Shown: piece by piece, positions 17,036 to 64,000 of the stretch
How positions within the stretch are numbered: position 1 is the stretch's first letter
Layout of the letters: every line of letters starts with the position of its first letter
Assembly: GCA_024679065.1 (NCBI GenBank)
Contig: JAGIQG010000048.1
Coordinates: 124,001 to 188,000 of the forward strand
DNA: 64,000 nt
Direction: 5' to 3'
Source of the DNA: Sphyrna mokarran
Lineage: Eukaryota
Made by a program: the position numbers and the translations under genes
Notes under the pieces: generated by a model
Told to the model about the DNA's origin: nothing
Database searches by the model: none
The model's input: only the letters and a program-made list of their open reading frames with translations

Positions 17036-17353
17036 CCTGAGATGCGCTGATGTTCTGACTCTGGGTGACTCCGTCCTGAGTGACCTGGCAGGTATAGACC
17101 GCTTTGCTGTACCATTCCCCAGCGAAGACTGTCAACCGACTGCTGGCCGAGAAGTTCCCGTTCACTTCACAGGGGGCAACAGTGACAATTCCTGAATCCA
17201 CACGTTGTCCATTCTTCAGCCACTTCACCGTCATTGATCCTGGCTGGAAATCGAAGATTGAACAGACCATGGTTGCTGATTTGCTGCTTGAGATTTGTTC
17301 ACCGGAACTCACGGTGAGGATAACGGTTGGATGGATAGGATGCGGCCCAGGGC
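17036..17353 (-). CDS. IGHM: IgM Cmu2 exon
   Basis: GAAG|[51 protein letters not shown]|GTAAG; 318 nt, phase 1/1. Confidence 0.97.
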
Positions 17354-17566: not shown

Positions 17567-17866
17567 ATGGAATTGGAACGGTCTTGGAAAAGTCAAGATG
17601 TCGAACCTCACAGCCAATATTGGGGCATTTTCCCGATGAGTCGCTGATGGTGAACTGGCTGCTCAGGGTGTAGGTTCCCTTAGTGTTTCTCACTGATGGG
17701 AAAGTCTTAAACCCAGAGTTGATGGTCTGCCCATCTTTCTTCCAGGTCAGTTTGGAGACATCTGGATTGTAATCCATCGCCAAACAGCCGTAGGTGATGG
17801 AGCTGTCGGAGCTCTGTTGCCCACAGGAGGAGATCAGGCCGTAGACAGTGGGTGAAGATGGTGTCG
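17567..17866 (-). CDS. IGHM: IgM Cmu1 exon
   Basis: CTAG|ATPSSPTVYGLISSCGQQSSDSSITYGCLAMDY..WKKDG..GCEVRHLDFSKTVPIP T|GTAAGT; 300 nt, phase 1/1. Confidence 0.97.
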
Positions 17867-26585: not shown

Positions 26586-26633
26586 CTGAAGTCACCGTCA
26601 CCATGGTCCCTTGTCCCCAGTAATCGAAGTAGT
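26586..26633 (-). CDS. IGHJ: JH segment
   Basis: YFDYWGQGTMVTVTS G|GTAAG; WGxG motif. Confidence 0.98.
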
Positions 26634-27028: not shown

Positions 27029-27041
27029 CTATACCAGCCAT
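27029..27041 (-). CDS. IGHD: DH2 segment (ATGGCTGGTATAG)
   Basis: 13 nt between two 12-spacer RSS. Confidence 0.93.
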
Positions 27042-27399: not shown

Positions 27400-27416
27400 A
27401 CCCACTGCTATAGTAT
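27400..27416 (-). CDS. IGHD: DH1 segment (ATACTATAGCAGTGGGT)
   Basis: 17 nt between 12- and 22-spacer RSS; frames YYSSG / TIAVG / stop. Confidence 0.93.
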
Positions 27417-27809: not shown

Positions 27810-28114
27810 GTCTCCTGCACAGTAATAGATGGCGGTGTCTTCAATACTTAGACGCGTCATCTCCAAAGAGAAGATGTTGTTTGAAGTGTCTTTGGACGCC
27901 GTAAATCGGCCCTGAATTCCGGGGGCGTAATAGTTGTTGGATGAAGTATAGTAGCTAACCAGCCACTCCAGTCCCTGTCCGGGAACCTGCCGGATCCAAG
28001 CCATGGTATAGTCGCCAAGGTTAAAGCCGCTGGTTTTACAGGTCAGTTTCAGGGAGGCTTCGGGACGGCCGGTCTCTGCCTCTTTCTGGGTCAACACAAC
28101 CTCCGACTGGACAC
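27810..28114 (-). CDS. IGHV: VH exon (unrearranged)
   Basis: TTACAG|[71 protein letters not shown]; both Cys and the Trp intact, no stops. Confidence 0.98.
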
Positions 28115-28239: not shown

Positions 28240-28285
28240 CGGATAAGAAAGTCAGCAACAAACTGAGACAAATCGCCGACCTCAT
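28240..28285 (-). CDS. IGHV: VH leader exon
   Basis: ATG..MRSAICLSLLLTFLS G|GTGAGT; 125-nt intron to the V exon, in frame. Confidence 0.95.
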
Positions 28286-41415: not shown

Positions 41416-43599
41416 GTTCAATATGAAATAAACGTGGACATAGTCAAGTGCAGACTAAGACCGCATCCACTTTAGTAGAGAGACAGGTCTACATTAATAA
41501 AAGCAGAGTGTCTGTCGAGCTTAATAGAAACAGATAAATGGTGGTGTGTCATATAAACAAAGACAGCATCTAATTTTGTATAAACAGAGAGCATATCTAG
41601 TGTAATATGAACAGAGAAATATCTTCATTTAATATAAACTGGCATACTGATTAGTTAATTTAACATCAACAGAGCAGGGTCACGGAGGAGTGTTATATAG
41701 AGACTGGGCCTAGTGTCCCATCAAACATTCCAAGCTCAGGCGCAGCATGTGTTTAGGTGCTGAGTGTTAAGCTCCCTCCACATTGCAATATTAAACGTTC
41801 CCGAGGCACGGGATAGATACGAAGTGAATCTTCTTCCCCACTGTCTCAATTTAATATTGGCTGTTGAGAAATAATCAAACTCTCCATTCAAACAGGCGGG
41901 TGGCCGGGACAGGACGGGTTAGATTTCCAGGGAATGTCCAATATACACTTTGGAGAAAAGCTGCCCTGATATATTCCAATTAATTGAATTAGATCCATTT
42001 AGTTAGAAGCCTATTGATTTGGCTGAGGGAATACAATAACTGGAGCTTGACCTGATGTTGTTGAAAATGATCTATCGTGAGAGACAAGACAGAGAATCAG
42101 ATGGGAGAAAAACACAGGGACATAAAACACAAGAAATCTCCACAAGTATATTTGCGGTGGCGTTCTATTTCGAGATTACAGGGAATCTTTCCCACAGAGA
42201 TGATCATAGTCCTTTTTGTGTAAAATAACACATGAAGAAAAATGTCCAAGGAACGATCAGGATTGGAATCCGTTGATTTATATCCACGTTTGCCTATTTC
42301 TGTACTGTGTTGATGGAGAAATTTTTCTTGTGATTTTTCTCAGTCAATAAATGTATTCTGGGATTGCTATTTCTCTGTTTATTTACACAAACGCCTCATT
42401 GGTTGGGATGAAGTTTCACGACCGCAAAACCAGATAAAGAGTCACTTTTCAATTCATTTTAACTCAGAATAACGGTTTGATTTAAGTACATTGACAGTTG
42501 ATTCAAAATGAAGAGAATCTTCCTGAATACCCATTAGAGCAGGTGCTGTTTAATTCAAATAAAGAGATCCTTTCTAAATAAACATTTGTTCTGATGTCAA
42601 AATAAATAAAACGTATTTGAACAGGTTGGTATTCCACTGAATGTCTAATTTGATTGACGATTTGATCTACTTAAATTGGACAAGTTAAAGCATCAGCCGC
42701 CGAGTGAGTACAATCTCAGAGCTTTCAACATATCAAATATTGTATTGTGTGTTGGCAACATATGGAAAGAGCTTGCATTTAGTTCATGGAAATATAGAAA
42801 CCATACATTGCAGAAGGAGGCCATGCAATCCGTCATGTTTGTATTGATAACAGTCTCACCCAGGTTCTACCCCTTTAACCCAATTCACCCTGTCAATCTC
42901 ACTAACCTGTACATTCTAAGGCACTAAGGGACAATTTAGCAATCGGCCTAACCCGTTACATCTTTGCACTGTGGGAGGAAACCGGAGCATCTGGAGGAAA
43001 CTTTGCCAACTTGTGTCGAATGTGTGAACTCTGCACAAACAGGGGACCCCACGCTGGGAATCGAACCCAGGGCTCTGGAGCTCTAAGATAGCAGTGTGTC
43101 ACCATGCCATCTCACTGTGCCACCGTGCCGTCCACGTTTATATAACGCTTTCCCCGAACTCAGGTCGCGCCAAAGCATTTAAAACTCTCTGGCGTATTTT
43201 TGTGGAATTTATGCGTTGCTGTAATATTGGGAATGCAGGAAGTGTTCGTGGAACAACAGCCTCCCAAGTTTGATAAACAAACAGCAATTTTGTGATTTTG
43301 GGTTGAAGAATGAATGGCCCACGGAGAGTTTAGCATGGACAATGCACCTAACCAGCACATCTTTCCAGACGGTGGGAAGAAACCGGAAGGAAACCTACCC
43401 AAACTGTGGACAGGCAGTGGCCCAAGCTGGGAATGGAGGCAGCAGTGCTAGCCACATGTCCCACCCTCATGTTATGGAGTCTGCACCTTCTCCCCGTGTC
43501 TATAAGGCTTTCTTCCGGGTTCTCCCACACACCCACAGGTACACCTACCTAACTCCGATCTCAAATCTTCTTGCAAACGAAGGTCTTCATAATTGCTCT

Positions 43600-44440
43600 T
43601 CATAAGAACTAGGAGCAGGAGTCGGCTATCCAGCCCCTCGAGCCTGCCCCGCCATTCAATAAGATCATGGCTGATCTGAAGTGGATCAGTTCCACTTTCC
43701 CGCTTTCTCCCCGTAATTCCCTTGTCTATCAGAAAACTATCCACTCTCGACTTGAACATATTCAGTGAGGAAGCCTCCACCACCTCATCAGGCAGCGAGT
43801 TCCAAAGATTCACCACCCTTTGCGTGAAGAAACCCCTCCGCAACTCCAAATTGAACTGCTCCCTGCCCCCCTAATCTTGAGGCTGTGCCCTCTAGTCCTG
43901 CTATCTTTGCTAAGCGGGAAGAGTCTCTCAGCCTCTACCCTATCCATCCCCTTCATTATCTTATACGTCTCTATAAGATCCTCTCTCAGCCTTCTAAACT
44001 CCAAAGAGTACAAACCTAGCCTATTCAGTGTCTCCTCATAATCCAACGCCCCCATCTCCGGTATCAGCCGAGTAAACCTTCTCTGCACCTCCTCCAAGGC
44101 CAATATATCCTTCCTCGAATGTGGCGACCAAAACTGCACACAGTACTCCAGCTGCGGCCTCACCAGTACCCTATACACCTGCAACAGACCCTCCCTACTT
44201 TTATATTCGATCCCCCTCGCTATAAAGGCCAACATATCAGAGGGTGGTGAGTGAATGGAATCGGCTGCCGTCAGTGGTGGGAGAAGCGAACTCGCTGGGG
44301 TCTTTTAAGAGACTTCTGGATGAGTACAGGGGATTTAATGGGATTGGGAGTTACAGATAGTTCTATGACCTGGTAGGTATGGATATGATCGGCACAACGT
44401 GTGGGCCGAAGGGCCTGTTTGTGCTGTAGTGTTCTATGTC
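43600..44440. mobile_element. two abutting CR1 fragments (43600-44237 minus, 44238-44440 plus)
   Basis: VYRVLVRPQLEYCVQFWSP..; mirrored at 62215-63000. Confidence 0.88.
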
Positions 44441-46827
44441 CTAGAACTTCTCCCACCCTTGAATATTATTTTGACACAATGACCCTGACTAATGGGAATC
44501 CACGTCAAAGTTCCATCATGGAGAAACACGCGAGGTAAGAGGTCTTTATGGAGCTTGACGTTAACCATACATGAGGTGCACTATCAGAACAGCTGGGTGC
44601 TTGGTCTGGTTCCCTTCGAACGGAGCAGTTTATTGGGAGGTTTAGTACAGACTTTCAAAGTTATTAATGGGAATGTTTTACTCGTTGGAAAGAAACTGTT
44701 ACCCTCTGGCAAAATGGGAGGCCTACGGTAGAGACTGCTTGATTGCATTACACAAGACCATCTTTCTATTTGTGTTGTACCAGACCAAGCTTTCATTGTA
44801 TGACAGCAAACCTTGTCTCTTTTCACACTACATTCGCTCCTTTCTCTCCTTATGCTACACTGGGCCATCTCTCTAGTTATGCTACATTGAGTCCTCTCAA
44901 GAGAAAGCCATGTGTTTGATGATACCCATAGAATCTCATCTCTTTATATATTACATAATATTTCTCTCTTTACATTAGATCAGAACCTGTAGCTGTTAAT
45001 CCAACATACAACGATGAGAATGTTGCCTGCCGAATATTATCAATCATGATATAATATGGGTGTGCCTGTGGAACACCAATCATTCCTGTTTGAAAGTGTA
45101 GATTTCATTTTTTTTTTGCTAATTTCTATAAGTAGCTGTGAGAAACTTCTAGTTACTCTGTTATGGTGTGGGTAATGTGTAGCTTGAACGTTATAATAAT
45201 TTCTCAGCGATTAACTGGGAGACGGGTCAATCTCTGAACAATCGTGCAGTGCTCCTTGCAAGACCTTCAAGCAGCATCTGTTGTGATACATTTCATTAGT
45301 TGAACAGTGTCGCACTGTGTGTCAACTTGCGACAGATTTTGGCGACAAAGGTTGTTTCGCTTCTCCTGTTTCATTTATACCGTTCATGGACAGTGTGAGA
45401 CAGAATTGTGTACTCGCAATATCGCCAAATGGACTCTCATAGGCTAAATGTCTATCCAATCATTAATTGTTCATCTGTTTCAGAGAGAAATGGAATGAAA
45501 TGGCCCCAGGACAAGAAAGAAGGCCTTACTTTTTTTCCTGAATACAATTTAAAATATATATTTTCTGCAATTTGAATTGTTTTCTTCAAAATGATTTTTC
45601 AGTTTGGGATATCTTCATCTGCCTGGACCCTAATCTTTGTCATTCCCTCCCTAAATCTCCTGATCTCACTTCCTTCGTCTAAATCAAACTGTAAAATTGT
45701 CCCTTTATCGGTCATCCGGTCAATATCCTGATCAAATATTCCGTTGTTCAAAAACAAGGTGCTGTGGATAAATGAGACCTGGGAAAAATAAAATGCCAGA
45801 AACACTCAGCAGATTATTCATTGTTAAGTGGAATGGTACTCGTGTGCATCTCTCTCCCTCTCTCTTTCTCTGTGCCTGCCTCTATCTCTCTTGCCTCCTT
45901 TCTCTCTCTCTCTCTCACACACACATTTGTAACAGTTATATCCAACAATGCATTAGGCTATGCCTCTTTAATTACTCATTTGAATCATTATTGCAATAGG
46001 TTTTATAATATGCCGTTTTATTTATTATTATATGATGGCACGCTGTGGGAAATGCTACAAATCATCACTTTTGAACTTCTGTTCATTCAAAATGTCATTT
46101 CTGTTACATTAAGCTCCACTTCAGATGTAATTGTGCTTGGCTTATTTGACTCTCCTTCGTATTATACTGGGCCCTGATCATAAATCCAACACTGTCTCAG
46201 CAATTGTTTTTCTATAAAATGCTAAAAGAAAGAAGGAGCCAGCGAGATGAACAAATGGATATTAGCTTCAAAATATATTTGTGTTGATGAATGGGGTTCG
46301 AGGAATGTGTTGTTAATAACTACTAGCAGTTGGCTAGAATATCTAATTGCTCTCGTATTGCCTGCAATATCTTGTACAGAGTTTGGAATCCAATGTGTAA
46401 CATCCTCTTGTTCAAAAGCGATTGAGGAACACAATAAAGGTGTGCCACGTTGCACTGCAAATGGACACTAAGGAGCAGTTTGGTCTGCCATTCCTACAAA
46501 CCTGGACATCTTTGGACTGTAGGGGAAAAACAGTAAATCTGGATGAAACCCACATGGGGTGAATGTGCACACAGTTACACACGGTGGAAATGGACTCTGT
46601 GTCCGTCACAGTGTGAGGTACCAGTGCTAATCACTGTGTAAATAACTGCTGTTACTTTCAAGTTCATTTATTCAGGATTTACCTGCACATTTTTTTGCCA
46701 GTCGATGTCGAAATTTACTGAATGTCTTGAACGTTCTTAAAGTGATGGGAATGGAGGGGTATAGAAAGCTGATTTAAAATAGGGATCATGAGCCTTGGGA
46801 GTCCCTGGGAAGTGTGTAAATAGATGA

Positions 46828-47312
46828 TGATATTGATGTACTTGTTTTTATCCTACAGGTGCTTTGGTCCCCCTTGTTGTCTAACAAGGGGCATGCACGC
46901 AATGGGTCGTGAGAGGGCTGCTCTTGGATTTTTTTCGAGAGTATCCTAGTGCTTCACATCGTTAGTGTACGCTTGACCTGGACCATTTGATGGGCAACAC
47001 GACAGCTCAGTGACTATCGCTGTGCTGCGCAGATACATGGATTTGGGTCTATGTCTGTGGGAGTTTGCGCATTCTCCCCGTGCACGCGTGGGTTTTCTCT
47101 GGGTGCTCCGGTTTCCTCCCACATCCCAAAGATGTGCTCTTAGGGTAATTGGCAAAACAAATTCTCCCTAAATCGTCTCAAATTTGGTTTTTAATCCATA
47201 GATCTATAAACATGGACAGGGATCGTGGGTAGAGATGGGAACATCAGGGTGGCGGCGCGGGCTCGTTGGGCCGAAGGGCCTGTTTTCCATGCTGTTTTGT
47301 TCTTTGATCTTT
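46828..47312 (+). mobile_element. full-length 5'-extended V-SINE derivative
   Basis: Same 5' start (TGATATTGATGTAC) as the 6199 copy. Confidence 0.85.
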
Positions 47313-50300
47313 GATGGCCATTCCACTGCCCAAGGCAATGCGTCCTTCAAATATCTCACTGAACTTCTCTCCTTCCTCTCTCCGTCTCAGACTGCACATG
47401 AATTAAGTAACTTCTCTCCCCGTCAACCTTCATTAACTCAATCACAAGGTGCCCAGGAGAGGGATACAGCTACTCGTTAAAAACCAATCTTTATTTATTA
47501 ATTTTGCTTAATTGTTTTATTTTGCTCCTTGGGACTGAGAAGGATGAAGCACAAAAATCTCATCAGTAGAAAATTCCATGTTGGAAACAGACCAGTTCAC
47601 CCACTTAACCCCTCTCCTCGAATTCCCTCACACAACACCCGAACGGATTTTCTATTTTAAAAACACCTCGGCGGAAAAAAAAATGTTTTAAATTTCCCTC
47701 TTGTGTCTCAGTGATAGTGTTCCCTTCAATTAAACACAAATATGATCATTTTACTTGCTACATTAAAATGGGAATGGAGGTGAATATAATGCTGAGACCG
47801 ACAGCAATATCTGTGTGGTTGTTCTTGACGTTTTCAGAGTGAGTTCACCCTCACAGGCAGGAAGACTGTTCACGGTGATAACATCAAACTGGGCCCGGTT
47901 GGTTCATTCTCCTGTTTCTTGCTGTCGCTTCCAAACCGCACATCTCGCTTCTGAGCAGAAAATAAACCCAGGGACCACAATCTGGTGAGAACATCTGTCA
48001 GTGCAGCCTATATCTGTCCACAGAGTCACACAGGTCACACTGCGATGACATTTACAAATGGGTCTGATGTGATCTGTTCAGAGTTTCCAGAACTGAATGG
48101 GCAGTGGATCAGTCACTGAGCTCTCCCAGATTCCATGTAGGAAGGGAATGATAGCTGTTATCTTGTATTTGTTGATCATTTTCTCCCCATCTATTTTCTT
48201 TTTGTTTCTCAGTTTTTATATCTATCAGCACTCTTTTTCCCTCCTAACCCTCCCGCTGTCCCTGTCTATCTCCTTGTCAAGCTTTTGAACACTTTTATTA
48301 GTCTTCAAAATCATGAGGTTGGGAGAGGGGTGATTAAAGAGAGAACAACTCCAAGGACGGTCGGTAAACAATGGGCAAAAAATAAAATATTTTATTTTAC
48401 CGAACAGGGAGGCAGAATTTTAATTTTTCACCTTGACCCAAGAGTTGGCATGAACAGGAATAAAGAGCTTGGAAGGCGGATGGAATCAGATTTCACAGTA
48501 ACTTATCCTTCATGGAGTTAAAATGTGAAGGATTTTCGAGAATAGGTCCATTTTAATGGTTCTTATCTATCATTGCCCTGGCAACGTGTCTGTGTCTCCC
48601 CTGTCCTTCATTGAGACTGAATAAAATGCAGTATTTATACAATTGTATAATTCTTCTGTTANNNNNNNNNNNNNNNNNNNNNNNNNNNNNNNNNNNNNNN
48701 NNNNNNNNNNNNNNNNNNNNNNNNNNNNNNNNNNNNNNNNNNNNNNNNNNNNNNNNNNNNNNNNNNNNNNNNNNNNNNNNNNNNNNNNNNNNNNNNNNNN
48801 NNNNNNNNNNNNNNNNNNNNNNNNNGAGGCGGTTGGGGTGGGGAGTGGACTATTCTGAATTCCCAATTATCCAATTCTATTTATAAACCATCACTTTGAA
48901 CGAATTAGCACTGGATCGAACTGGTTTAGGAAAATCACATTACTCTTAACGTTTATTACACTGTTCTTTTTTCCCTCTGATGATATTCTCCAACTTAGTC
49001 CTTTCAATCCTCACGTGTCTGAATTCTATCTGTAAATGTGGAACTGTTTGTAATAATGAAAATTTCTTTTCCTCTGAAAGATTCACTATTGTTACCCCAG
49101 GGAACAGAACTTTATGGATTCTGCCATGTCTGTTCCCCCTCCTTGGGAATAACAGGCTCTTAGTCAGGTGGAGTCAATCATAGGATTTCCAATCCCTGTT
49201 TGCTCCACAGATCCCTGCGTCCCTCATCATGACAAAGAAACCTTCCCCAAAGCCCTAGAAACGATTGTTTCTTTATATCAGATTCCAGTCTGACCCCGAA
49301 TCCAGCTCTTAGTGATACAATGGAGCCGGTTATTCAAATTATAATGTTCTCATTCTCTATGATTATTTTGGACACCGTTACCCAATCCGTTGTGAATTAG
49401 AACCTGTACCTCATCTAGCTTCATTCCACACCTGCCGGTTATTATTGGACAAATTACTTTTTCTAGAATTATCACACGCACAAAAAATATTAATTTAAAT
49501 GTTCTACCACGTTCTCTCTCTTGGAAATCTCACACATTGGTTTACAGGACTCTCCCAGTCAGTTAATGTTATCATTGTGTTAGAATCTCTGTTTATATTG
49601 GATTAGATTCTGTCTCTGTAGTTAGAGATAATTTTTAATCATTTATAGGATGTGGGAAACACTGAATCTCTTGCCCTTCTCTAATTGCCCCTGAGCTGCT
49701 ATCTTGAATCGCTGCAGTCCATGTCCACCAGGCAATGTCACTGTTTATATCACACAAGGTCTGGCCAACCTCATGATACACCTGATCCTGATTGATCGTA
49801 TTACAGAGGTTGTACAACCTACACACAGTAGAAAATATTTAGGATGGTTACCATGAACTGGGGAAGGTAACGGTTAAACAGAAATATTGCTCCTTCTCTG
49901 GACAGTAGCAGATGTTTCAACTCTTTGCATCAGAAATAAGAAGTCTGAGAATTACAGATGTAATTTTGAGCTGTCGGCAATATCTCCAGGGTCCTTTTTC
50001 GCCATTCTGTTCACAAATCAGCACACAACTGAGTCGTACATCAGGAAGTTTAGTAAAACACTGAGCAGATCAATTTCCGTCATTGGAAATGTGATTTATT
50101 CATTTTCCAACAGATTTCTAGAGGCAGAGAAGTCAACGGCAGGAACAAAACAGTGGGGCATTTTGTACACAAGAGCGCACAGCAGAATGGCTGTCAATAA
50201 ATAGTTACATGTTAAATGTTGAAACACGTTTGGTGTTTTCACGCATTCGTGGAAAGCAGGGATGGGCTGAAGGTTAGCACTGGGAAAACTGAAGGGGAAT

Positions 50301-50774
50301 TGCTAAAGGAGATCATTTCACCAAAGGGGGTTATTAGAAAATAGGATATTTAAAATAAATTAGCACGGAAATGTCTCTGATATTTGTTAGACAGAGAACC
50401 ATAGAATTCCTACAGGTCAGGGAAAAAAGGCCATCTAGTCTACCGAGTTTGTATCCCACCCAGGTCCTTCTCTCCCGGTGAGCACCACACATTAACCAGG
50501 GCTAATCCACATACTGTAAGGGAAAATAACGGGCAATTTTGCATGGTCAATCCAACTAATACTATGTGTTATAATATGAACAAGGGACAGTGTTTGTGCA
50601 GTGATACAGAGACAGGGCCGAATGCACCAGGTATGGATCCAGCACCTGTACTGATATGAATGCAGACTGGATCCAGGTCAGTCATTACTGAGAGAGTGTA
50701 TACAGTATATTACTAACCAGCGTGGTGTTTTCTCATATAAACAGAGACATGCCATGCTCAGTCTTGACAAAGAC

Positions 50775-51510
50775 AATGTCTATTCAACGGTAGGAGTCTT
50801 AGCTGTGTTGTAGAGCAGAAGGATCTTGGGGTCTGGGTCCATCGGACACTTAAATCGGCCTCGCAGGTGGAGGAAGTGGTCAAGAAGGCGTACGGTGTAC
50901 TGGGTTCATTAATCAAGGAATAGAGTTTAGGAGTCAGGAGGTAATGATGCAGCTCTGTATGACTCTTGTCAGACCCCACTTAGAGTATTTTGCGCAGTTC
51001 TGGTCGCCTCTCTATAGGAAGGATGTAGAGGCTATTGAGAGAGTGCAGAGGAGATTTACAAGGGTGCTTCTGGATTGGGAGGCAGGCCTAATGAAGATAT
51101 TTTGAGGGAGCTGGGACTCTTCTCCCTGGAGAGATGTAGGTTGAGAGGCGACCTGATAGAGGTTTATAAAATGTTGAGAGGAATAGATAGGGTGGATTCT
51201 CAGAGACTATTTCCCCAAGCTGAAATGGTCAGTACGAGAGGACACAGATTTAAGGTGCAGGGAAGCAAATACAGAGGAGATGTTAGGGGTAGGTTTTTCA
51301 CTCAGAGGGTGGTGAGTGAATGGAACCGACTGCCGTCGGAGGTTGTTGAGGCAAACTCACTGGGGTCTTTTAAAGACTTCTGGATGAGTATATGGAAAAG
51401 AATAGGATAGGGGGTTATAGATAGGTCTTTGGATTGGTAGATGTGATCGGCGCAACTCGTGGGCCGAAGGGCCTGTTTGTGCTGTATTGTTCTATGTTCT
51501 ATGTTCTATT
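50775..51510 (+). mobile_element. CR1/HER1 LINE 3' fragment
   Basis: [23 protein letters not shown]; (GTTCTAT)n tail. Confidence 0.92.
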
Positions 51511-52349
51511 CTAATATATGCAGAGAGAATGTGCTCTGTAATTTAAACTGAGACTGGTTCCAGCGCTATCAGGAAATAGGGACATGATCCAGTGTGATAT
51601 AAACAGAGATGTGGCTGAGTGGAATAAAAAGTGAGGGAATGCAGAGTAAAGCAATAATTGAGAAAGGATGATGGGTAAAATGAACAGAGATATGGTTTGG
51701 TGCATGAATAAAGGAGAGAGCATCCAGTGCAATAAAAACTATCACCGAATGTAATTTTGTCTGATTCTGGCCATTGTATAATATAAACGGAGACAAATCC
51801 GATGCAGTAATTCCAAACCAAACCTCTAGATTGATATAAGCTTTGACAGGAGCAATTGCAGCAATAAATAAATCATGAAATAGAATACTAATTAGAGACA
51901 GGATATTATTCGGTATAAACAGGGAGGTGCAGCAGTGATTGAGATATTGTCAATGTTCCTTTATACCCGGCAGGTTCCAGCAATGTAATAACTGAGACTG
52001 AGCCTCATGTGATACAAACAGTAACATGTCCTGGTGTTTTATCAGGAGGGAGAGGGTCCAGTGAAGTAACAGCGCAGATATAGAGTTTCATGGCCTTAGA
52101 CAAGAATTAATCCCGTTCTGTTATAACAGCCAGACTGAACGGTGTAATGTCAAATGAGGCTTGTTGCAATATAGTAACAACTGGGATTTTGCTCAGCACA
52201 GAATCAACTGAGAATTATTGCCATTTAATCTGAAATATGATTTCCTGTCATATAAACTGGGTCAGGTTTAAGATGGCCAAAGACTGAGTCTATTATAGAA
52301 ATAACCGGGATGATCATCCGTATCGTTTGTGTTAAAAAGCACTGATTCA

Positions 52350-52363
52350 CTGCCATCTCCTGG
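52350..52363 (-). promoter_or_regulatory. candidate CTCF site
   Basis: CCAGGAGATGGCAG on the minus strand, one mismatch to CCASYAGRKGGCRS. Confidence 0.4.
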
Positions 52364-53959
52364 ACTAGCTTTGCTATTGTTGGTGTGGGGAAATGCTGAT
52401 TTCAGTCTCTGTTTCTTATTCTGTCCTGGGCTGTATACCCAGCTGGTAAAGGCCACCATATATTAGCAATCGCTAATACACTGAATTTACTGGTTTTCTA
52501 GAACATCATAGAAAGCAGGTAATCGCCACGCACTTGTGCGCCTGGAGTCACTTCTGGGCCAAACTGGGGAATGATGGAAAGTTTCCTTTCCTGCTGGGCA
52601 TTAGAGAATCTGATACATTTCTTGTCAAGGCCGCAATTATGGAAATGGCCTTTAAATTCAAAATTGCAATCTTAAAACTTTTTACGGTTGGATTCGAATA
52701 TATATCTTGAGAGATTTGCCTACCCTCGGAATTACTCTCACAGAGATATTGTCACTCTGCCACTGTCTCCCTTTTAATATTGATAAAGTATTTACAGCAG
52801 TGAAGAAGGCCATTTTGAAGCGTCATGTGTGTGTTGACTCTATAAAGGATCAATTCATCCAATAACAATCTGAAGCCCACAGTCCAGCATTTTGTTCATT
52901 TTCAGACAATTCTCCAATCCCATTTTGAAACCATTCATTGATGCTGCCTGTACCACACTCTCAAACAGCACATCCCAGACCTGGATCACTCACTGTCTGA
53001 AGATGTTCTTTGTGATGTCTCTATGCTCCTTTCACCAATTTACTTCAACCCGCGCCCTGTGTGTCAAGATCCTTCTGTCATTAAACAGTTTCCCTCGATC
53101 GACTCTGTCAAGACCCCTCGGGAGTTTGAATGCCTCATCAAAGTCACAACAGCAACTTCCCGTCAAGGAAATTAGTCCGAACCTCTCCAAAATACATTCC
53201 TCACTGAAGTTTCTGATCTCTGGAATTACTCTGGTATTTTGCTCCTGCATCCAGTCTCCTAATGTTCAATTCTGCCTTAGGTTCGGGCAGTTAGTGTCTG
53301 TTTGAACACAATCTTTCCTCATGCCTTGAAGTGAAGATTCTGAGCAAATTCATTTCTCATTTCTGGCGGATTATTGGGAATCAGACAAGGTTAAGCACGA
53401 CAGTTGAAATGGTCCTTCACTGCAGCTCATTCTGTTTGTGACTCGATGTGATCTCTGTTTAATTCCACAGTTCAGGATGAATTGATTCAGTGAAGGAACA
53501 GGCTCAAGACTACTCTTGGCCTTTCTCAGCTCCTTCGCTGCGTATGTCACTGAGGGTCTAGTGATCAGGATCGGCACCGTGACACTGTTTCCATTCCCAG
53601 TCACGGAGTGGATAAGCTATTTGTTCAATTCTTCATTTAGTGAAAAACAAAACGCCTCACAGCATCTGTGAAGGGAGCAACATCGAAACCTTCCGGCTGG
53701 ATGAACTTGCAACGGGAGCTGGAAAAGTCAGAGATGTAACACCAAAAATAAAGTCGGAACACTCACATGGGACACACACAACATATATGTCAGATACACC
53801 CACAGCACACATGTCAAATCATGTCACTTTCAAGTTGTGTCTTTTAACTTCCTGCTCTCCACCTCAGACATTCCCACATTCATCAAAAATCTCCAACCTC
53901 AATCCTGTTCTACAACCCACTGATAACACTACACATACAGGAGTCAGCTTGTAGCATTT

Positions 53960-54032
53960 GGCTCCATAGCTCAGTGGTTAGAGCACTGGTCTTGTAAACC
54001 AGGGGTCGTGAGTTCAATTCTCACTGGAGCCT
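53960..54032 (+). tRNA. tRNA-Thr(TGT)
   Basis: GGCTCCATAGCTCAGTGGTTAGAGCACTGGTCTTGTAAACCAGGGGTCGTGAGTTCAATTCTCACTGGAGCCT; acceptor, anticodon and T stems pair fully. Confidence 0.95.
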
Positions 54033-54726
54033 CTGGGCAAAATTTAGCTGATATCAACTGTGGGGAAAAGGCAGGACACAAAACAGCGTTTCCTCCACAA
54101 CCAAAGGAGATCATAACCAATCCCAAGAGTCAACATCAATTTCCAAATGTATCCCGATGACCTTTAGATTCCAGAAATATCTCCCTCTGCACCTTCAACA
54201 TTAACTGAGGATTTACAGATTTCTGACTAAGGGTCATCGAGACTTGAAACTGCTGTCTCTATTTTCTCTCCACGGATGCTTCCAGACCTGCTGAGATGTT
54301 CCAGCATTCTCTGTTTTTGTTTCAGATTCCAGCATCTGCAGTATTTTGCTTTCACCGCCACCAGTTACATTCTGTTTGATTTCTTTTTCTCTCTATCACA
54401 ACTTTGCCAACTCTTATCCACAGCTCCCACCCTCACCCCCAATGTCTCCCACACTTAAAGTGTAAATCTCGTCCTCTTTTCCCGCCTTGATGACTAGCTG
54501 TACAAATTTGAAATGTTGCTTCTATTCTCTCCGCAGAGATGCCGTCATGAGATTTTCCAGCATTTTAAGTTATTAAGTTCCAGCATCTGCAGTAACTTGC
54601 TGTGGGCTGAAGCACTCATTCCTGGTTCTATCTAAACATGAGGGTCTTTTCCCCCAACAAACCTTTTCTTGCGAACTTGAAAAACTCTGCAATCTATCAA
54701 TCAGATTAAGGCTCTTGCTTGTAGCT

Positions 54727-54798
54727 TCCCTGGTGGTCTAGTGGTCAGGATTTGGCGCTTTCACCACCGCGGCCCGGGTTCGATTCCCGGTCAGGGAA
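54727..54798 (+). tRNA. tRNA-Glu(TTC), anticodon stem weakened
   Basis: TCCCTGGTGGTCTAGTGGTCAGGATTTGGCGCTTTCACCACCGCGGCCCGGGTTCGATTCCCGGTCAGGGAA; anticodon stem has U-G and C-A. Confidence 0.88.
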
Positions 54799-55234
54799 TG
54801 TAAGCTTTATTGCTGCCGACCAGCAGAAGAGTTAGGAGGGGCTGAAATAATTTCCTGATGGAAAACAGGAGTGATTATTGTGTCAGTTTGAACTACCTGG
54901 AGAAACAAAAATAAATCCATTGGCCCAATCCCGGCAATTTCTATTTCCATTCCCCTTGCTGCTTCCTCCTGTTAAAATGAATAATAATACATTCTACTCC
55001 ACTACATTTCACCACATTCAAAGATCATTCGTAGCCTCTGCCTCTTCTATAGCTTCTTGTGGGAAATCTGCTGAACAACATTAGTTTTTCCCAGCCCTGC
55101 TCTGATATCTGAGATTTGTATCTCATTAATCATCTTTATGGTCCCTATTGCTTCATCCCAGGTCACTGACACTACAGATATAGTCACACAGTCATTCTAT
55201 CGTCAGTAGCTAATAATACACTCTGCCTTTGAAT

Positions 55235-55845
55235 ATAGAACATAGAACACTACAGCACAAACAGGCCCTTTGGCCCACAAGTTGTGCCGATCATACCCAT
55301 ACCTAGCAGGCCATAGAACTATCTGTAAATCCCAATCCCATTAAATCCCATGTACTCATCCAGAAGTCTCTTAAAAGACCCCAGTGAGTTCGCCTCCACC
55401 ACCACTGATGGCAACCGATTCCATTCACTCACCGCCCTCTGAGTGAAAAACTTACGCCTAACATCTCCTCTGTACTTACCCCTAAGCACCTTAAACCTGT
55501 GTCCTCTCGTAGCGACGTTTCAGCCCTGGGAAATAGCCTTGGAGAATCCACTCTATCTATTCCTCTCAACATCTTATAAACCTCTATCAGGTCGCCTCTC
55601 AACCTACGTCTCTCCAGGGAGAAGAGTCCCAGCTCCCTCAACCTATCTTCATAAGGCATGCCTCCCAATCCAGGCAACATCCTTGTAAATCTCCTCTGCA
55701 CCCTTTCAATAGCTTCCACGTCCTTCCTGTAGTGAGGCGACCAGAACTGCGCACAGTACTCCAAGTGTGGTCTGACAAGGGTCTTATAAAGTTGTAGCAT
55801 TACCTCCTGACTCCTGAGCTCAATCCCTCTATTAATGAAGGCTAA
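55235..55845 (-). mobile_element. CR1/HER1 LINE 3' fragment
   Basis: LYKTLVRPHLEYCAQFWSPHYRKD..RLRGDLIEVYK. Confidence 0.92.
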
Positions 55846-56055
55846 ATCTGTACTTTGCTTCTGAATTCACAAAGGAATAGCCCATCATTCAAACAGGAAG
55901 GAAGTGAGAAAATATGGAATGATGGACTTCTGAGCCTAGTGTTGGTTGCAGGGAAGTTACTCGAGTTTATTATCAAGGAGCTCAGCATTTGGAAAGCAGT
56001 GACATAATCTGACAAAGCCGACATAGATTTACAAAAGGGGAATCATGCTTGACAA

Positions 56056-56513
56056 CAACAAAGAATAAAGAACAAAACAGCACGGGAAACAGGTCCTTTG
56101 GCCCAACGAGCCTGCGCCGCCACCCCGATGTTCCCACTTCTACCCGTGATCCCTGTCCATGTTTATAGATCTATGCATTGGAACCAAATTTGAGAGAATT
56201 TAGGGAGAATTTGTTTTGCCAATCAGCCTAAGAGCACATCTTTGGGATGTGGGAATAAACCGGAGCACCCGGAGAAAACCCACACAAGCACAGGGAGAAT
56301 GTGCAAACTCCCACAGACACAGGGCCAAATCCATGTATCTGCACAGCACAGCGATAGTCACTGAGCTGTCGTGTTGCCCATCAAATGGTCCAGGTCAAGC
56401 GTACAGTAACGACGTGAAGCACTAGGATACTCTCGAAAAAAAAATCCAAGAGCAGCCCTCTCACGACCCATCGCGTGTATGTCCCTCGTTAGACAACAAG
56501 GTGGACCAAAGTA
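56056..56513 (-). mobile_element. 5'-extended V-SINE derivative inserted into an older CR1
   Basis: Flanked by the 8-bp direct repeat CTTGACAA (56048-56055, 56514-56521); the CR1 sequence GGGGAATCATGCTTGACAA..ACCTACTGG resumes across it. Confidence 0.85.
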
Positions 56514-56607
56514 CTTGACAAACCTACTGGGATTCTTTGATGATGTAAGTCGTAGAGTTGACCAGGGAGAACTGATGGACATTGTTTAGATTTTCAGTTG
56601 GTTTTGT

Positions 56608-59600
56608 GATTAGCCCTGGTTAATGTGTGGGGCTACGGGAGAGAAGAGACTGGTGGGATCACAAAACTCGTAGGTACTAGTGGCCTTTTTTTCCTGACCT
56701 GTAAGGAATTCTATGGTCTTGTCTGACAAATATCAGAGGACATTTCGGGCTAATTATTTAAATATCCTATTTCTAATGAACACACTTTGGTGAAATGATC
56801 TCCTTTAGCCATTACCCCTTCAGTTTTCCCAGTGCTAACCTTCAGCCAATTCCTGCCTTCCATGAATGCGTGAAAACACCAAACAGTTCATGTGTTTCAA
56901 CATTTAACATGTAACTATTTATTAACAGCCATTCTGCTGTGCGCTCTTGTGTACAAAATGCCCCACTGTTTTGTTCCCGCCGTTGACTTCTCTGCCTCTA
57001 GAAATCTGTTGGAAAATGAATAAATCACATTTCCAATGACGGAAATTGATCTGCTCAGTGTTTTACTAAACTTCCTGATGTACGACTCAGTTGTGTGCTG
57101 ATTTGTGAACACAATGGCGAAAAGGGACCCTGGAGATATTGCCGACAGCACAAAATTACATCTGTAATTCTCAGACTTCTTATTTCTGTAGATGCAAAGA
57201 GTTGAAACATCTGCTACTCTCCAGAGAAGGAGCAATATTTCTGTTTAACCGTTACCTTCCCCAGTTCCATGGTAACCATCCTAAATATTTTCTACTGTGT
57301 GTAGGTTGTACAATCTCTGTAATACGATCAATCAGGATCAGGTGTATCATGAGGTTGGCCAGACCTTGTGTGATATAAACAGTGACATTGCCTCGTGGAC
57401 ATGGACCGCAGCGATTCAAGATAGCAGCTCAGGGGCAATTAGAGAAGGGCAAGAGATTCAGTGCTACCCACATCCTATAAATGATTAAAAATTATTTCTA
57501 ACTACAGAGACAGAATCTAATCCAATATAAACAGAGATTCTAACACAACGATAACATTAACTGACTGGGAGAGTCCTGTAAACCAGTGTGTGAGATTTCC
57601 AAGAGAGAGAACGTGGTAGAACATTTAAATTAATATTTTTTGTGCGTGTGATAATTCTAGAAAAAGTAATTTGTCCAATAATAACCGGCAGGTGTGGAAT
57701 GAAGCAAGATGAGGTACAGGTTCTAATTCACAACGGATTGGGTAAGGTGTCCAAAATAATCATAGAGAATGAGAACATTATAATTTGAATAACCGGCTCC
57801 ATTGTATCACTAAGAGCTGGATTCGGGGTCAGACTGGGATCTGATATAAAGAAACAATCGTTTCTAGGGCTTTGGGGAAGGTTTCTTTGTCATGATGAGG
57901 GACGCAGGGATCTGTGTAGCAAACAGGGATTGGAAATCCTATGATTGACTCCACCTGACTAAGAGCCTGTTATTCCCAAGGAGGGGGAACAGACATGGCA
58001 GAATCCATAAAGTTCTGTTCCCTGGGGTAACAATAGTGAATCTTTCAGAGGAAAAGAAATTTTCATTATTACAAACAGTTCCACATTTACAGATAGAATT
58101 CAGACACGTGAGGATTGAAAGGACTAAGTTGGAGAATATCATCAGAGGGAAAAAAGAACAGTGTAATAAACGTTAAGAGTAATGTGATTTTCCTAAACCA
58201 GTTCAATCCAGTGCTAATTCGTTCAAAGTGATGGTTTATAAATAGAATTGGATAATTGGGAATTCAGAATAGTCCACTCCCCACCCCAACCGCCTCNNNN
58301 NNNNNNNNNNNNNNNNNNNNNNNNNNNNNNNNNNNNNNNNNNNNNNNNNNNNNNNNNNNNNNNNNNNNNNNNNNNNNNNNNNNNNNNNNNNNNNNNNNNN
58401 NNNNNNNNNNNNNNNNNNNNNNNNNNNNNNNNNNNNNNNNNNNNNNNNNNNNNNNNNNNNNNNTAAGTAACAGAAGAATTATACAATTGTATAAATACTG
58501 CATTTTATTCAGTCTCAATGAAGGACAGGGGAGACACAGACACGTTGCCAGGGCAATGATAGATAAGAACCATTAAAATGGACCTATTCTCAAAAATCCT
58601 TCACATTTTAACTCCATGAAGGATAAGTTACTGTGAAATCTGATTCCATCCGCCTTCCAAGCTCTTTATTCCTGTTCATGCCAACTCTTGGGTCAAGGTG
58701 AAAAATTAAAATTCTGTCTCCCTGTTCGGTAAAATAAAATACTTTATTTTTTGCCCATTGTTTACCGACCGTCCTTGGAGTTGTTCTCTCTTTAATCACC
58801 CCTCTCCCAACCTCATGATTTTGAAGACTAATAAAAGTGTTCAAAAGCTTGACAAGGAGATAGACAGGGACAGCGGGAGGGTTAGGAGGGAAAAAGAGTG
58901 CTGATAGATATAAAAACTGAGAAACAAAAAGAAAATAGATGGGGAGAAAATGATCAACAAATACAAGATAACAGCTATCATTCCCTTCCTACATGGAATC
59001 TGGGAGAGCTCAGTGACTGATCCACTGCCCATTCAGTTCTGGAAACTCTGAACAGATCACATCAGACCCATTTGTAAATGTCACCGCAGTGTGACCTGTG
59101 TGACTCTGTGGACAGATATAGGCTGCACTGACAGATGTTCTCACCAGATTGTGGTCCCTGGGTTTATTTTCTGCTCAGAAGCGAGATGTGCGGTTTGGAA
59201 GCGGCAGCAAGAAACAGGAGAATGAACCAACCGGGCCCAGTTTGACGTTATCACCGTGAACAGTCTTCCTGCCTGTGAGGGTGAACTCACTCTGAAAACA
59301 TCAAGAACAACCACACAGATATTGCTGTCGGTCTCAGCATTATATTCACCTCCATTCCCATTTTAATGTAGCAAGTAAAATGATCATATTTGTGTTTAAT
59401 TGAAGGGAACACTATCACTGAGACACAAGAGGGAAATTTAAAACATTTTCTATGGATTAAAAACCAAATTTGAGACAATTTAGGGAGAATTTGTTTTGCC
59501 AATTAGCCTAAGAGCACATCTTTGGGATGTGGGAGGAAACCGGAGCACCCGGAGAAAACCCACGCAAGCACGGGGAGAATGCGCAAACTCCCACAGACAC

Positions 59601-62600
59601 AGGCCCAAATCCATGTATCTGCACAGCACAGCGATAGTCACTGAGCTGTCGTGTTGCCCATCAAATGGTCCAGGTCAAGCGTACACTAACGACGTGAAGC
59701 ACTAGGATACTCTCGAAAAAAATCCAAGAGCAGCCCTCTCACGACCCATCGCGTGTATGCCCCTTGTTAGACAACAAGGTGAACCAAAGCACCTGTAGGA
59801 TAAAAACAAGTACATCAATATCATCATCTATTTACACACTTCCCAGGGACTCCCAAGGCTCATGATCCCTATTTTAAATCAGTTTTCTATACCCCTCCAT
59901 TCCCATCACTTTAAGAACATTCAAGACATTCAGTAAATTTCGACATCGACTGGCAAAAAAATGTGCAGGTAAATACTGAATAAATGAACTTGAAAGTAAC
60001 AGCAGTTATTTACACAGTGATTAGCACTGGTACCTCACACTGTGACGGACACAGAGTCCATTTCCACCTTGTGTAACTGTGTGCACATTCACCCCATGTG
60101 GGTTTCATCCAGATTTACCGTTTTTCCCCTACAGTCCAAAGATGTCCAGGTTTGTAGGAATGGCAGACCAAACTGCTCCTTAGTGTCCATTTGCAGTGCA
60201 ACGTGGCACACCTTTATTGTGTTCCTCAATCGCTTTTGAACAAGAGGATGTTACACATTGGATTCCAAACTCTGTACAAGATATTGCAGGCAATACGAGA
60301 GCAATTAGATATTCTAGCCAACTGCTAGTAGTTATTAACAACACATTCCTCGAACCCCATTCATCGACACAAATATATTTTGAAGCTAATATCCATTTGT
60401 TCATCTCGCTGGCTCCTTCTTTCTTTTAGCATTTTATAGAAAAACAATTGCTGAGACAGTGTTGGATTTATGATCAGGGCCCAGTATAATACGAAGGAGA
60501 GTCAAATAAGCCAAGCACAATTACATCTGAAGTGGAGCTTAATGTAACAGAAATGACATTTTGAATGAACAGAAGTTCAAAAGTGATGATTTGTAGCATT
60601 TCCCACAGCGTGCCATCATATAATAATAAATAAAACGGCATATTATAAAACCTATTGCAATAATGATTCAAATGAGTAATTAAAGAGGCATAGCCGAATG
60701 CATTGTTGGATATAACTGTTACAAATGTGTGTGTGAGAGAGAGAGAGAGAGAAAGGAGGCAAGAGAGATAGAGGCAGGCACAGAGAAAGAGAGAGGGAGA
60801 GAGATGCACACGAGTACCATTCCACTTAACAATGAATAATCTGCTGAGTGTTTCTGGCATTTTATTTTTCCCAGGTCTCATTTATCCACAGCACCTTGTT
60901 TTTGAACAACGGGATATTTGATCAGGATATTGACCGGATGACCGATAAAGGGACAATTTTACAGTTTGATTTAGACGAAGGAAGTGAGATCAGGAGATTT
61001 AGGGAGGGAATGACAAAGATTAGGGTCCAGGCAGATGAAGATATCCCAAACTGAAAAATCATTTCGAAGAAAACAATTCAAATTGCAGAAAATATATATT
61101 TTAAATTGTATTCAGGAAAAAAAGAAAGGCCTTCTTTCTTGTCCTGTGGCCATTTCATTCCATTTCTCTCTGAAACAGATGAACAATTAATGATTGGATA
61201 GACATTTAGCCTATGAGAGTCCATTTGGCGATATTGCGAGTACACAATTCTGTCTCACACTGTCCATGAACGGTATAAACGAAACAGGAGAAGCGAAACA
61301 ACCTTTGTCGCCAAAATCTGTCGCAAGTTGACACACAGTGCGACACTGTTCAACTAATGAAATGTATCACAACAGATGCTGCTTGAAGGTCTTGCAAGGA
61401 GCACTGCACGATTGTTCAGAGATTGACCTGTCTCCCAGTTAATCGCTGAGAAATTATTATAACGTTCAAGCTACATATTACCCACACCATAACAGAGTAA
61501 CTAGAAGTTTCTCACAGCTACTTATAGAAATTAGCACAAAAAAAATGAAATCTACACTTTCAAACAGGAATGATTGGTGTTCCACAGGCACACCCATATT
61601 ATATCATGATTGATAATATTCGGCAGGCAACATTCTCATCGTTGTATGTTGGATTAACAGCTACAGGTTCTGATCTAATGTAAAGAGAGAAATATTATGT
61701 AATATATAAAGAGATGAGATTCTATGGGATATCATCAAACACATGGCTTACTCTTGAGAGGACTTAATGTAGCATAACTAGAGAGATGGCCCAGTGTAGC
61801 ATAAGGAGAGAAAGGAGCGAATGTAGTGTGAAAAGAGACAAGGTTTGCTGTCATACAATGAAAGCTTGGTCTGGTACAACACAAATAGAAAGATGGTCTT
61901 GTGTAATGCAATCAAGCAGTCTCTACCGTAGGCCTCCCCTTTTGCCAGAGGGTAACAGTTTCTTTCCAACGAGTAAAACATTCCCATTAATAACTTTGAA
62001 AGTCTGTACTAAACCTCCCAATAAACTGCTCCGTTCGAAGGGAACCAGACCAAGCACCCAGCTGTTCTGATAGTGCACCTCATGTATGGTTAACGTCAAG
62101 CTCCATAAAGACCTCTTACCTCGCGTGTTTCTCCATGATGGAACTTTGACGTGGATTCCCATTAGTCAGTGTCATTGTGTCAAAATAATATTGAAGGGTG
62201 GGAGAAGTTCTAGGACATAGAACACTACAGCACAAACAGGCCCTTCGGCCCACAAGTTGTGCCTATCATAGCTATACCTACCAGGTCATAGAACTATCTG
62301 TAACTCCCAATCCCATTAAATCCCATGTACTCATCCAGAAGTCTCTTAAAAGACCCCAGCGAGTTCGCTTCTCCCACCACTGACGGCAGCCGATTCCATT
62401 CACTCACCACCCTCTGATATGTTGGCCTTTATAGCGAGGGGGATCGAATATAAAAGTAGGGAGGTTCTGTTGCAGGTGTATAGGGTACTGGTGAGGCTGC
62501 AGCTGGAGTACTGTGTGCAGTTTTGGTCGCCACATTCGAGGAAGGATATATTGGCCTTGGAGGAGGTGCAGAGAAGGTTTACTCGGCTGATACCGGAGAT

Positions 62601-64000
62601 GAAGAAGGCTGAGAGAGGATCTTATAGAGACGTATAAGATAATGAAGGGGATGGATAGGGTAGAGGCTGAGAGACTCTTCCCGCTTAGCAAAGATAGCAG
62701 GACTAGAGGGCACAGCCTCAAGATTAGGGGGGCAGGGAGCAGTTCAATTTGGAGTTGCGGAGGGGTTTCTTCACGCAAAGGGGGGTGAATCTTTGGAATT
62801 CGCTGCCTGATGAGGTGGTGGAGGCTTCCTCACTGAATATGTTCAAGTCGAGAGTGGATAGTTTTCTGATAGACAAGGGAATTACGGGGAGAAAGCGGGA
62901 AAGTGGAACTGACCCACTTCAGATCAGCCATGATCTTATTGAATGGCGGGGCAGGCTCGAGGGGCTGGATGGCCGACTCCTGCTCCTATTTCTTATGAAG
63001 AGGAATTATGAAGACCTTCGTTTGCAAGAAGATTTGAGATCGGAGTTAGGTAGGTGTACCTGTGGGTGTGCGGGAGAACCCGGAAGAAAGCCTTATAGAC
63101 ACGGGGAGAAGGTGCAGACTCCATAACATGAGGGTGGGACATGTGGCTAGCACTGCTGCCTCCATTCCCAGCTTGGGCCACTGCCTGTCCACAGTTTGTG
63201 TAGGTTTCCTTCCGGTTTCTTCCCACCGTCTGGAAAGATGTGCTGGTTAGGTGCATTGTCCATGCTAAAGTCTCCGTGGGCCATTCATTCTTCAACCCAA
63301 AATCACAAAATTGCTGTTTGTTTATCAAACTTGGGAGGCTGTTGTTCCACGAACACTTCCTGCATTCCCAATATTACAGCAACGCATAAATTCAACAAAA
63401 ATACACCAGAGAGTTTTAAATGCTTTGGCGCGACCTAAGTTCGGGGAAAGCGTAATATAAACGTGGACGGCGCGGTGGCACAGTGAGATGGCATGGTGAC
63501 ACACTGCTATCTTAGAGCTCCAGAGCCCTGGGTTCGATTCCCAGCGTGGGGTCCCCTGTCTGTGCAGAGTTCACACATTCGACACAAGTTGGCAAAGTTT
63601 CCTCCAGATGCTCCGGTTTCCTCCCACAGTGCAAAGATGTAACGGGTTAGGCCGATTGCTAAATTGTCCCATAGTGCCATAGAATGTACAGGTTAGTGAG
63701 ATTGACAGGGTGAATTGGGTTAAAGGGATAGAACCTGGGTGAGATTGTTATCAATACAAACATGACGGATTGCATGGCCTCCTTCTGCAATGTATGGTTT
63801 CTATATTTCCATGAACTAAATGCAAGCTCTTTCCATATGTTGCCAATACACAATACAATATTTGATATGTTGAAAGCTCTGAGATTGTATTCACTCGGCG
63901 GCTGATGCTTTAACTTGTCCAATTTAAGTAGATCAAATCATCAATCGAATTAGACATTCAGTGGAATACCAACCTGTTCAAATATGTTTTATTTATTTTG
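56608..64000 (-). repeat. large inverted duplication, right arm (runs off the window end)
   Basis: Reverse complement of 42598-50507 up to the last base of the window. Confidence 0.95.
59450..59823 (-). mobile_element. mirror copy of the 46828 SINE derivative, tail removed by a deletion
   Basis: Junction AAACATTTT|CTATGGATTAA. Confidence 0.85.

Follow-up and report, generated by a model that had tools for sequence, protein, structure and literature searches.

The 64,000-nucleotide stretch of Sphyrna mokarran DNA considered here (the window; contig C1082, positions 124001-188000) lies within an array of eight complete immunoglobulin M (IgM) clusters that are ~98% identical and alternate in strand along the contig (+ - + - + - + -). 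The remainder of the 436,136-base contig and a 23-kb contig, C1196, were also analysed. On its minus strand, the window carries one complete IgM minilocus, cluster 4, comprising the leader (L), V, D1, D2, J, Cmu1-4, secretory tail and transmembrane (TM) exons. Upstream of this cluster lies a palindrome from which the original prediction, made from the letters of the window, had extrapolated a plus-strand IgM cluster ~14 kb beyond the window end. Indeed, the homology does not stop at position 64000 but runs on past it, and an intact L-V-D-D-J-C-TM cluster, cluster 5, is found there head to head with cluster 4. It starts 14.4 kb past the window end, and its V exon, at contig 202,564, corresponds to window position 78,564 (14.6 kb past). 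The evidence is evenly poised on our preferred account of these structures, in which the alternating array grew from a tail-to-tail fold-back pair that was then multiplied, and in which the head-to-head joint at window position 56,605 is real, secondarily trimmed and flanked by poorly polished sequence.

All eight clusters contain a leader, V, D1, D2, J and TM, and the Cmu1-4 frame is open without an internal stop in each of them. If strands were independent, strict alternation would arise by chance once in 128 cases, C1082 being the one contig examined whole. The V-to-V distances of head-to-head neighbours are 36.5, 50.5 and 54.0 kb, and the TM-to-TM distances of tail-to-tail neighbours are 15.9, 16.0, 15.7 and 74.7 kb. 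Around the window joint, mirror symmetry extends ~95 kb each way and each arm contains two clusters: 92,738 of the 95,195 left-arm bases (contig 79,313-174,507) fall on the mirror diagonal. Between clusters 7 and 8 is a further folded region (C1082:335,000-392,000) with three C2H2 zinc-finger exons of 11-12 fingers. In this region two fold-backs, at 350.4 and 375.8 kb, turn at the same base and have ~100-base loops and a common short insert.

The copies are distinct as genes. The eight V exons encode six different protein sequences, and private variants are present in every copy. Variable positions number 32 of 294 V bases, with 20 of 63 in the first and second complementarity-determining regions (CDRs) and 12 of 231 in the framework, using CDR limits that we set; the variant codons comprise 28 replacement and 3 silent changes. 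The V exons of cluster 4 (CDR1 DYTMA) and its mirror cluster 5 (SYAMA) differ, while clusters 3, 6 and 7 have one V protein in common. Since six V alleles with differences concentrated in the CDRs would not come from errors, two haplotypes or a folded read, the IgM expansion looks real. Nor can two haplotypes joined in inverse, the half-depth mis-join raised with the original prediction, explain eight copies with six V alleles.

Within the window, self-BLAST and a repeat search paired positions 42598-50507 with 64000-56608 in inverted orientation. The match is far above chance (E=0, with 4.6 kb in a single block by self-BLAST) and consists of three blocks: 4,608 bases at 97.3% identity, 982 at 99.3% and 1,701 at 96.2%. 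This agrees with the geometry originally described, in which arms of 7.9 and 7.4 kb were still matching at base 64000. The full left arm extends back to contig 79,313, taking in clusters 3 and 4. Other parts of the description held only in part. The two right-arm deletions are present, but that of 478 bases is not specific to the arm, being common to clusters 3, 5, 6 and 7; most of the stretch is spanned by a homologue on scaffold C994. At the 56-base site, cluster 3 is without 50 bases and cluster 5 without 56, counted from the same first base. The spacer has the reported size of 6.1 kb, but its supposed uniqueness ends with the window: a 1.95-kb spacer probe found four copies at 99-100% identity in the assembly (the window, C1196 and both arms of the palindrome of clusters 6 and 7) and many further copies at 76-85% upstream of IgM clusters on C994. 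The upstream region of cluster 4 continues through the spacer, which is IgM upstream DNA of the ordinary kind. N runs do occur at mirrored positions, but as there is not one N in the 372 kb of contig outside the window, where no assembly gap was seen either, these runs are not readable as assembly gaps and may be masks. Genes for tRNA-Thr(TGT) and tRNA-Glu(TTC) are located in the spacer (50508-56607), and one for tRNA-Cys(GCA) at 7660-7732 behind the TM exons; these tRNA genes may be carried along when the unit is amplified.

The tail-to-tail joints recur. The fold-back between clusters 3 and 4, with its 141-base loop, has a mirror-image copy between clusters 5 and 6 with a 143-base loop; the two are noise-free and match at 99.6% along 1.5 kb. 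At the level of comparison made, which was not a base-by-base alignment, the tails of clusters 7 and 8 seem to bear related folds and the 1/2 joint has a larger loop. What was multiplied is likely a pair of clusters set back to back. Because such a unit has heads at both ends, any chain of units would alternate and would carry head-to-head palindromes at the unit boundaries. A 56-base minisatellite, of a copy number that varies between clusters, flanks the tail-to-tail fold-back on both sides (window 391-809; contig 121.6-123.5, 231.2-232.9 and 331-334 kb).

The proposed series of events would begin with a fold-back behind the tail, through a replication template switch of the kind known from origin-dependent inverted-repeat amplification (ODIRA), giving an inverted two-cluster unit. 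This unit would then have been multiplied, with its boundaries falling head to head, and later one-sided deletions would have trimmed the head-to-head centres to the differing loops of 1.1, 6.1 and ~7 kb. Exchange would have run among all copies and not between mirror arms, and selection would have acted on the CDRs. According to the accessible parts of the respective papers, palindromic joints gain longer spacers through secondary deletion (PMC10766186) and inverted duplications reduce the accuracy of nanopore reads (PMC7229812). With respect to exchange, four-gamete incompatibility among 508 informative sites was 0.19 for sites less than 100 bases apart and reached 0.57 at distances above 8 kb; clusters 3/5, 3/6/7, 1/6 and 2/8 are connected by long tracts of identity. 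This mosaic pattern appears to fit exchange across the whole set of copies, not exchange limited to mirror arms.

Inverted IgM neighbours are not confined to this contig. Scaffold C994 (12.3 Mb) carries at least 25 further Cmu4 exons and at least 27 V exons, lower bounds obtained from 150 scored candidates. The counts of close neighbours given below leave out, for Cmu4, hits on C1082 and on other contigs, hits of ≤45% identity, a partial hit containing a stop and the second half of a split hit; for V, they leave out hits on C1082 and one on C969. On C994, four clusters alternate within 200 gap-free kb at 70-90% identity. Based on this gap-free run, inverted IgM neighbours are real and old in the genome. 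The longest alternating run on the scaffold is 8 (p 0.09). In an alternating run on C994, no Cmu4 hit follows the V exon at 9,018,872 and no V hit precedes the Cmu4 exon at 9,130,128, as in partial clusters. A head-to-head pair on the same scaffold (10,202,906-10,221,527 and 10,278,759-10,260,201) has 18.7-kb arms and a 38.7-kb spacer with a 100-N gap. Upstream of V, its arms show 0.2-2.3% differences per kb along 14 kb, and they have nearly the same V, but from D-J onward they differ by 12-16% (12-14% past V and ~16% around the C exons). Subject to the gap in its spacer, the pair is the best candidate here for arm-to-arm conversion, a partial inverted copy or a swap of V to a different C region. 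Finally, C1048 carries a different, partial cluster that is 75-78% identical to the window around Cmu4 and TM.

Several observations weigh against the account of a real joint within a fold-back array, and the odds that the joint at 56,605 is real are about even. The three head-to-head joints (contig 79,313; 180,605, which is window 56,605; and 282,447) are all different, and each has error-like bases on one side. The right arms of clusters 3 and 5 start at the same base, each following a different partner, and these starts show ~550 and ~300 bases, respectively, of independent indel-rich differences from four concordant copies. The heads of clusters 2 and 8 have end points no more than 2 bases apart, that of cluster 8 being the contig end. 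One real joint type occurring twice (2|3 and 8|5) would explain both coincidences and would make the window joint false. Further, C1196 tracks the cluster 4 arm, complete with the indels of cluster 4, and the spacer as far as 56,605, yet does not turn there: it continues straight on, across 2.1 kb of different DNA and head-to-tail into the zinc-finger region. In public reads, no bridging contig across 56,605 was present among those listed, which is not proof in that a short interspersed element (SINE) breaks contigs there. The depth on the spacer side in run X1 (see below), 277 in one bin and not to be read as a copy number, is not half that of the arm, the assembly copies being 3 versus 6. 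On the wider scale, direction on C994 alternates no more than by chance, and alternation as a general rule was not shown: neighbours are opposite in 12 of 19 close V pairs and 10 of 17 close Cmu4 pairs (p ~0.2). Mosaic signals in a collapsed ~98% repeat can be produced by assembly and polishing.

The strongest competing explanation retains the expansion and the tail-to-tail pairs but has the joint at 56,605 made by the assembler; we consider it a serious possibility that nonetheless falls somewhat short of an even chance. The head of cluster 4 would then run through the spacer to zinc-finger DNA as in C1196, the head of cluster 5 would follow a head of the cluster-2/8 type, and a collapsed 6-kb block would have been pasted twice. 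The "21-kb palindrome" would accordingly be two paralogous upstream regions set back to back. The parsimony of the same-base coincidences, namely the starts of clusters 3 and 5 with their independent noise and the ends of clusters 2 and 8, favours this explanation, as does the continuity of C1196. So does a 5.2-kb block common to clusters 3 and 5, which has two differences and ends at the 50- versus 56-base loss from one start. The 2.1-kb link itself (C1196:420-2540) is single copy in the assembly and contains a four-finger zinc-finger frame.

The read data bear on the same question. Three public DNA runs were compared over window positions 55,900-58,200: X1, a possible source of the assembly, and X2 and X3, which are from other organisms. 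Of 14 DNA runs listed, the best holds 0.67 of the words. Over 56,700-56,924, X1 has other letters than the window at full or near-full depth at 8 listed substitution and 9 listed indel sites, and X2 and X3 agree with X1 at most of these. The window letters in this segment are most likely consensus errors, which again favours an assembler-made joint. The X1 arm depth of ~280-500, with variant contigs from 14 to 152, is not a copy number but is roughly in keeping with many copies. The undiminished depth on the spacer side is a weak hint of head-to-tail copies.

Other evidence speaks for a real joint. Joining without homology requires either a chimeric read or a real breakpoint, and C1082 has no scaffold gap, whereas C994 has one of 100 N. 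Like is paired with like over 95 kb (the tail type of cluster 4 with that of 5, and 3 with 6), though by chance alone the odds of this would be even. Among 2,988 tiles, each 300 bases long, only 58 have ≥4 gap openings against the best paralogue; these are located at the head-to-head joints, at the two folds of the zinc-finger region and mostly in low-complexity or tandem-repeat stretches. As the zinc-finger fold-back recurs at exactly the same base in two places and also has noisy bases adjoining, noise next to a joint is by itself no proof that the joint is false. If the window joint is nevertheless a seam, the tail-to-tail pairs are unaffected, but head-to-head immunoglobulin palindromes in assemblies of this kind have to be backed by reads. 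Two other ideas were rejected: a RAG cut at the common right-arm start, where there is a CAC but no nonamer at 12 or 23, and a SINE-to-SINE deletion converting the 4/5 joint to the 2/3 joint, which would retain ~330 spacer bases that are absent.

The model of the original prediction, in which one cluster was copied in inverse beside itself and the arms were kept alike by arm-to-arm gene conversion, is improbable, although its geometry and its mirror cluster were found as predicted. Over 33 kb around V, clusters 4 and 5 differ by 1.67% substitutions, against a median of 1.71% and a range of 0.96%-2.23% for the 28 pairs. The sole standout is pair 6/7 (0.96%), which together with the C994 pair gives the model some support, as these other palindromes look homogenised or young. 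Pair 4/5 has 22 variants found in two copies, ranking third of the 28 pairs, but this number is matched by the non-neighbours 4/8 (25) and 2/8 (19). Of the 31 windows of 1.5 kb with a value, just 7 place cluster 5 nearest to cluster 4, with ties or near-ties among these 7, and lineage-marking indels differ between the arms. Next to the joint, cluster 5 has 60 differences from cluster 4 in 5,223 bases but 2 from cluster 3 in 5,230, so that the right inner arm is near-identical to cluster 3 and not to its mirror partner. Because the arms are no closer than random pairs and the 478-base loss is common to other copies, conversion between these arms is unsupported, and there is no sign of arm-to-arm homogenisation in pair 4/5. 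A single inverted duplication of cluster 4 is likewise unsupported as the origin: the right arm carries a loss common to three other copies. The pair belongs to an eight-copy alternating array. The palindrome of clusters 6 and 7 (C1082:231,987-331,779) has 49-kb arms that are 98.6% identical, with a 1.1-kb loop and 99.9% identity over the 1.8 kb next to it.

Least probable is a pure artefact, be it an inverse join of two haplotypes or chimeric fold-back reads copying one molecule: the whole contig is folded, zinc-finger region included, the 6/7 arms are near-identical beside their loop, and amplified DNA is described, in the accessible part of PMC6218980, as giving artificial palindromes in long reads, but the six V alleles, the private variants in every copy, the recurrence of joints at identical bases, the 60 differences between arms 4 and 5 next to the joint and, roughly, an X1 arm depth with variant contigs from 14 upward, as many copies would give, all stand against it.

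IgM miniloci in cartilaginous fish are textbook knowledge, and the recombination signal sequences (RSS) of the elasmobranch minilocus are laid out as 23, 12/22, 12/12, 23. The clusters described here are of this type, with L-V-D-D-J within ~2 kb and the same RSS layout, four Cmu exons, a secretory tail with a penultimate Cys and a TM exon. The arms, spacer and mirror-image genes also resemble palindromes of the primate Y type, whose long arms and mirror-image genes are under arm-to-arm gene conversion. Unlike in those palindromes, the likeness of the present arms (98.3%) does not exceed that of other paralogues, greater likeness being found only in pair 6/7 and one C994 pair. The nurse shark IgM minilocus, as given in the accessible parts of two papers, has a single VH, two D segments and a single JH within 2 kb, followed by the Cmu exons, with many loci per genome; the loci are at least 120 kb apart and their linkage is given as unknown (PMC2435157; PMC5192425). 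The present neighbours, in contrast, are 16 kb apart tail to tail in three of four such pairs and 36-54 kb V to V, ~98% identical and alternating.

In the accessible parts of a 2025 map of sharks and rays, all immunoglobulin heavy-chain (IGH) classes are linked on one chromosome and direction is not discussed (PMC12227049). Its table S1 has IgM rows on both strands; for the great white, the 9 IgM rows that include C regions comprise 5 minus and 4 plus. As in those miniclusters, the IgM clusters of C994 lie together and on both strands. The same parts of that paper describe no near-identical inverted array or fold-back joints, and the word "orientation" does not occur in the main text. We found no description of a near-identical alternating IgM array in the shark IgM literature, a limited negative in which subscription papers were mostly not covered.

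Alternation of strands is the subject of a bird IGH preprint (bioRxiv 10.64898/2026.09.05.749481), which in its accessible text attributes it to inverted duplications expanding the locus and proposes template switching. The preprint calls the architecture unique to birds in comparison with mammals and reptiles, and neither "shark" nor "cartilaginous" occurs in that text. Strand alternation through inverted duplication would be common to both systems. The bird inversions are numerous and short (mean 2.8 kb) and involve V genes, mostly pseudogene donors that feed somatic conversion, whereas the units here are whole open miniloci of ~50 kb with V open in 8 of 8. The assembled array also resembles ODIRA products, as covered in the accessible part of PMC10766186, in its alternating copies, in having fold-back joints at both ends and in the two classes of these joints, a recurring one with a short loop and others with kb-size loops. 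Specifically, the repeated short loop of an ODIRA primary joint is seen as 141/143 bases tail to tail and ~100 bases in the zinc-finger region, in two places each. The ODIRA cases in that part of the paper differ in being from yeast and human copy-number variants, mostly triplications, and the likeness is one of assembled copies and joints.

Judging from these sequences, it is possible, if rather doubtful as a whole, that sharks or rays multiply entire IgM miniloci by fold-back inverted amplification. A back-to-back two-cluster unit would then have grown into a real, dense array of functional loci in alternating orientation, its nested palindromes reaching 200 kb. The youngest of the palindromes, those of 6/7 and the C994 pair, would be homogenising their upstream region and V while the CDRs of older copies diverge. 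If so, an inverted-duplication IGH architecture would not be peculiar to birds, which would limit the 2026 bird-only claim, and neighbouring loci would be arranged so that exchange between them inverts rather than deletes. A young array in which the joints can be traced would also name the mechanism by which cartilaginous fish multiply and arrange antibody miniloci, namely fold-back followed by pair multiplication. With loci 16-50 kb apart in opposite directions, the rule of V(D)J joining within a minilocus and switching between clusters would become testable through inversion joints in B cells.

Table 1. Features of the window and of the surrounding array. Positions are those of the window unless marked as contig (C1082) positions; LINE, long interspersed element.
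Feature	Position	Strand	Basis or remark
Right edge of tail-to-tail fold-back, clusters 3/4	1..47	.	141-base loop at contig 123,888-124,028, mostly left of the window
IgM TM exons, cluster 4	9830..10106	-	TM1 ~9979-10106, TM2 ~9830-9838; boundaries read from sequence
Cmu4 exon with secretory tail	13748..14139	-	ends VNSCQ-stop
Cmu3 exon	15328..15636	-	AG/GT, in frame
Cmu2 exon	17036..17353	-	
Cmu1 exon	17567..17866	-	
JH segment (YFDYWGQGTMVTVTS)	26586..26633	-	23-spacer RSS
D2	27029..27041	-	12/12 RSS on its flanks
D1	27400..27416	-	12/22 RSS on its flanks
VH exon, cluster 4	27810..28114	-	CDR1 DYTMA, then 23-spacer RSS
Leader exon (MRSAICLSLLLTFLS)	28240..28285	-	
Left arm in window, far upstream region of cluster 4	42598..50507 (7.9 kb)	.	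self-comparison
56 bases missing on right arm	43996..44052	.	end of block common to cluster 3; possible assembly seam
478 bases retained in cluster 4 and C1196	47203..47679	.	lost in clusters 3, 5, 6 and 7
Spacer, further upstream region of cluster 4	50508..56607 (6.1 kb)	.	LINE/SINE pieces, two tRNA genes
Head-to-head joint	56605..56924	+	joint ~56,605, then ~300 indel-rich error-like bases
Right arm in window, far upstream region of cluster 5	56608..64000 (7.4 kb)	+	self-comparison
Inner right arm, block starting at same base as head of cluster 3	56608..62602	+	near-identical to cluster 3 in its clean part
V exons, clusters 1-4	contig 11,301; 63,459; 99,956; 152,103	+, -, +, -	cluster 4 is that of the window
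V exons, clusters 5-8	contig 202,564; 254,865; 308,899; 420,766	+, -, +, -	
Mirror cluster 5	contig ~202,382-220,754	+	intact L-V-D1-D2-J-Cmu1-4-TM, CDR1 SYAMA

In comparisons of Cmu4 with solved structures, mu chains dominate the top matches. A second J or a cryptic RSS at 25,401 was considered and dropped, there being no J motif in the sequence after it. An imperfect short palindrome (82%, ~170 bases) is located at window 29334-29505, 1 kb upstream of the leader exon. An L/P difference in Cmu4 is found in clusters 2, 3 and 5. The first residues of Cmu2, a proline-rich stretch (window 17,336-17,353 and its paralogues), differ in length and sequence among the eight copies, reading PGPHP, PPLHI, PPPPI or SPPPI.

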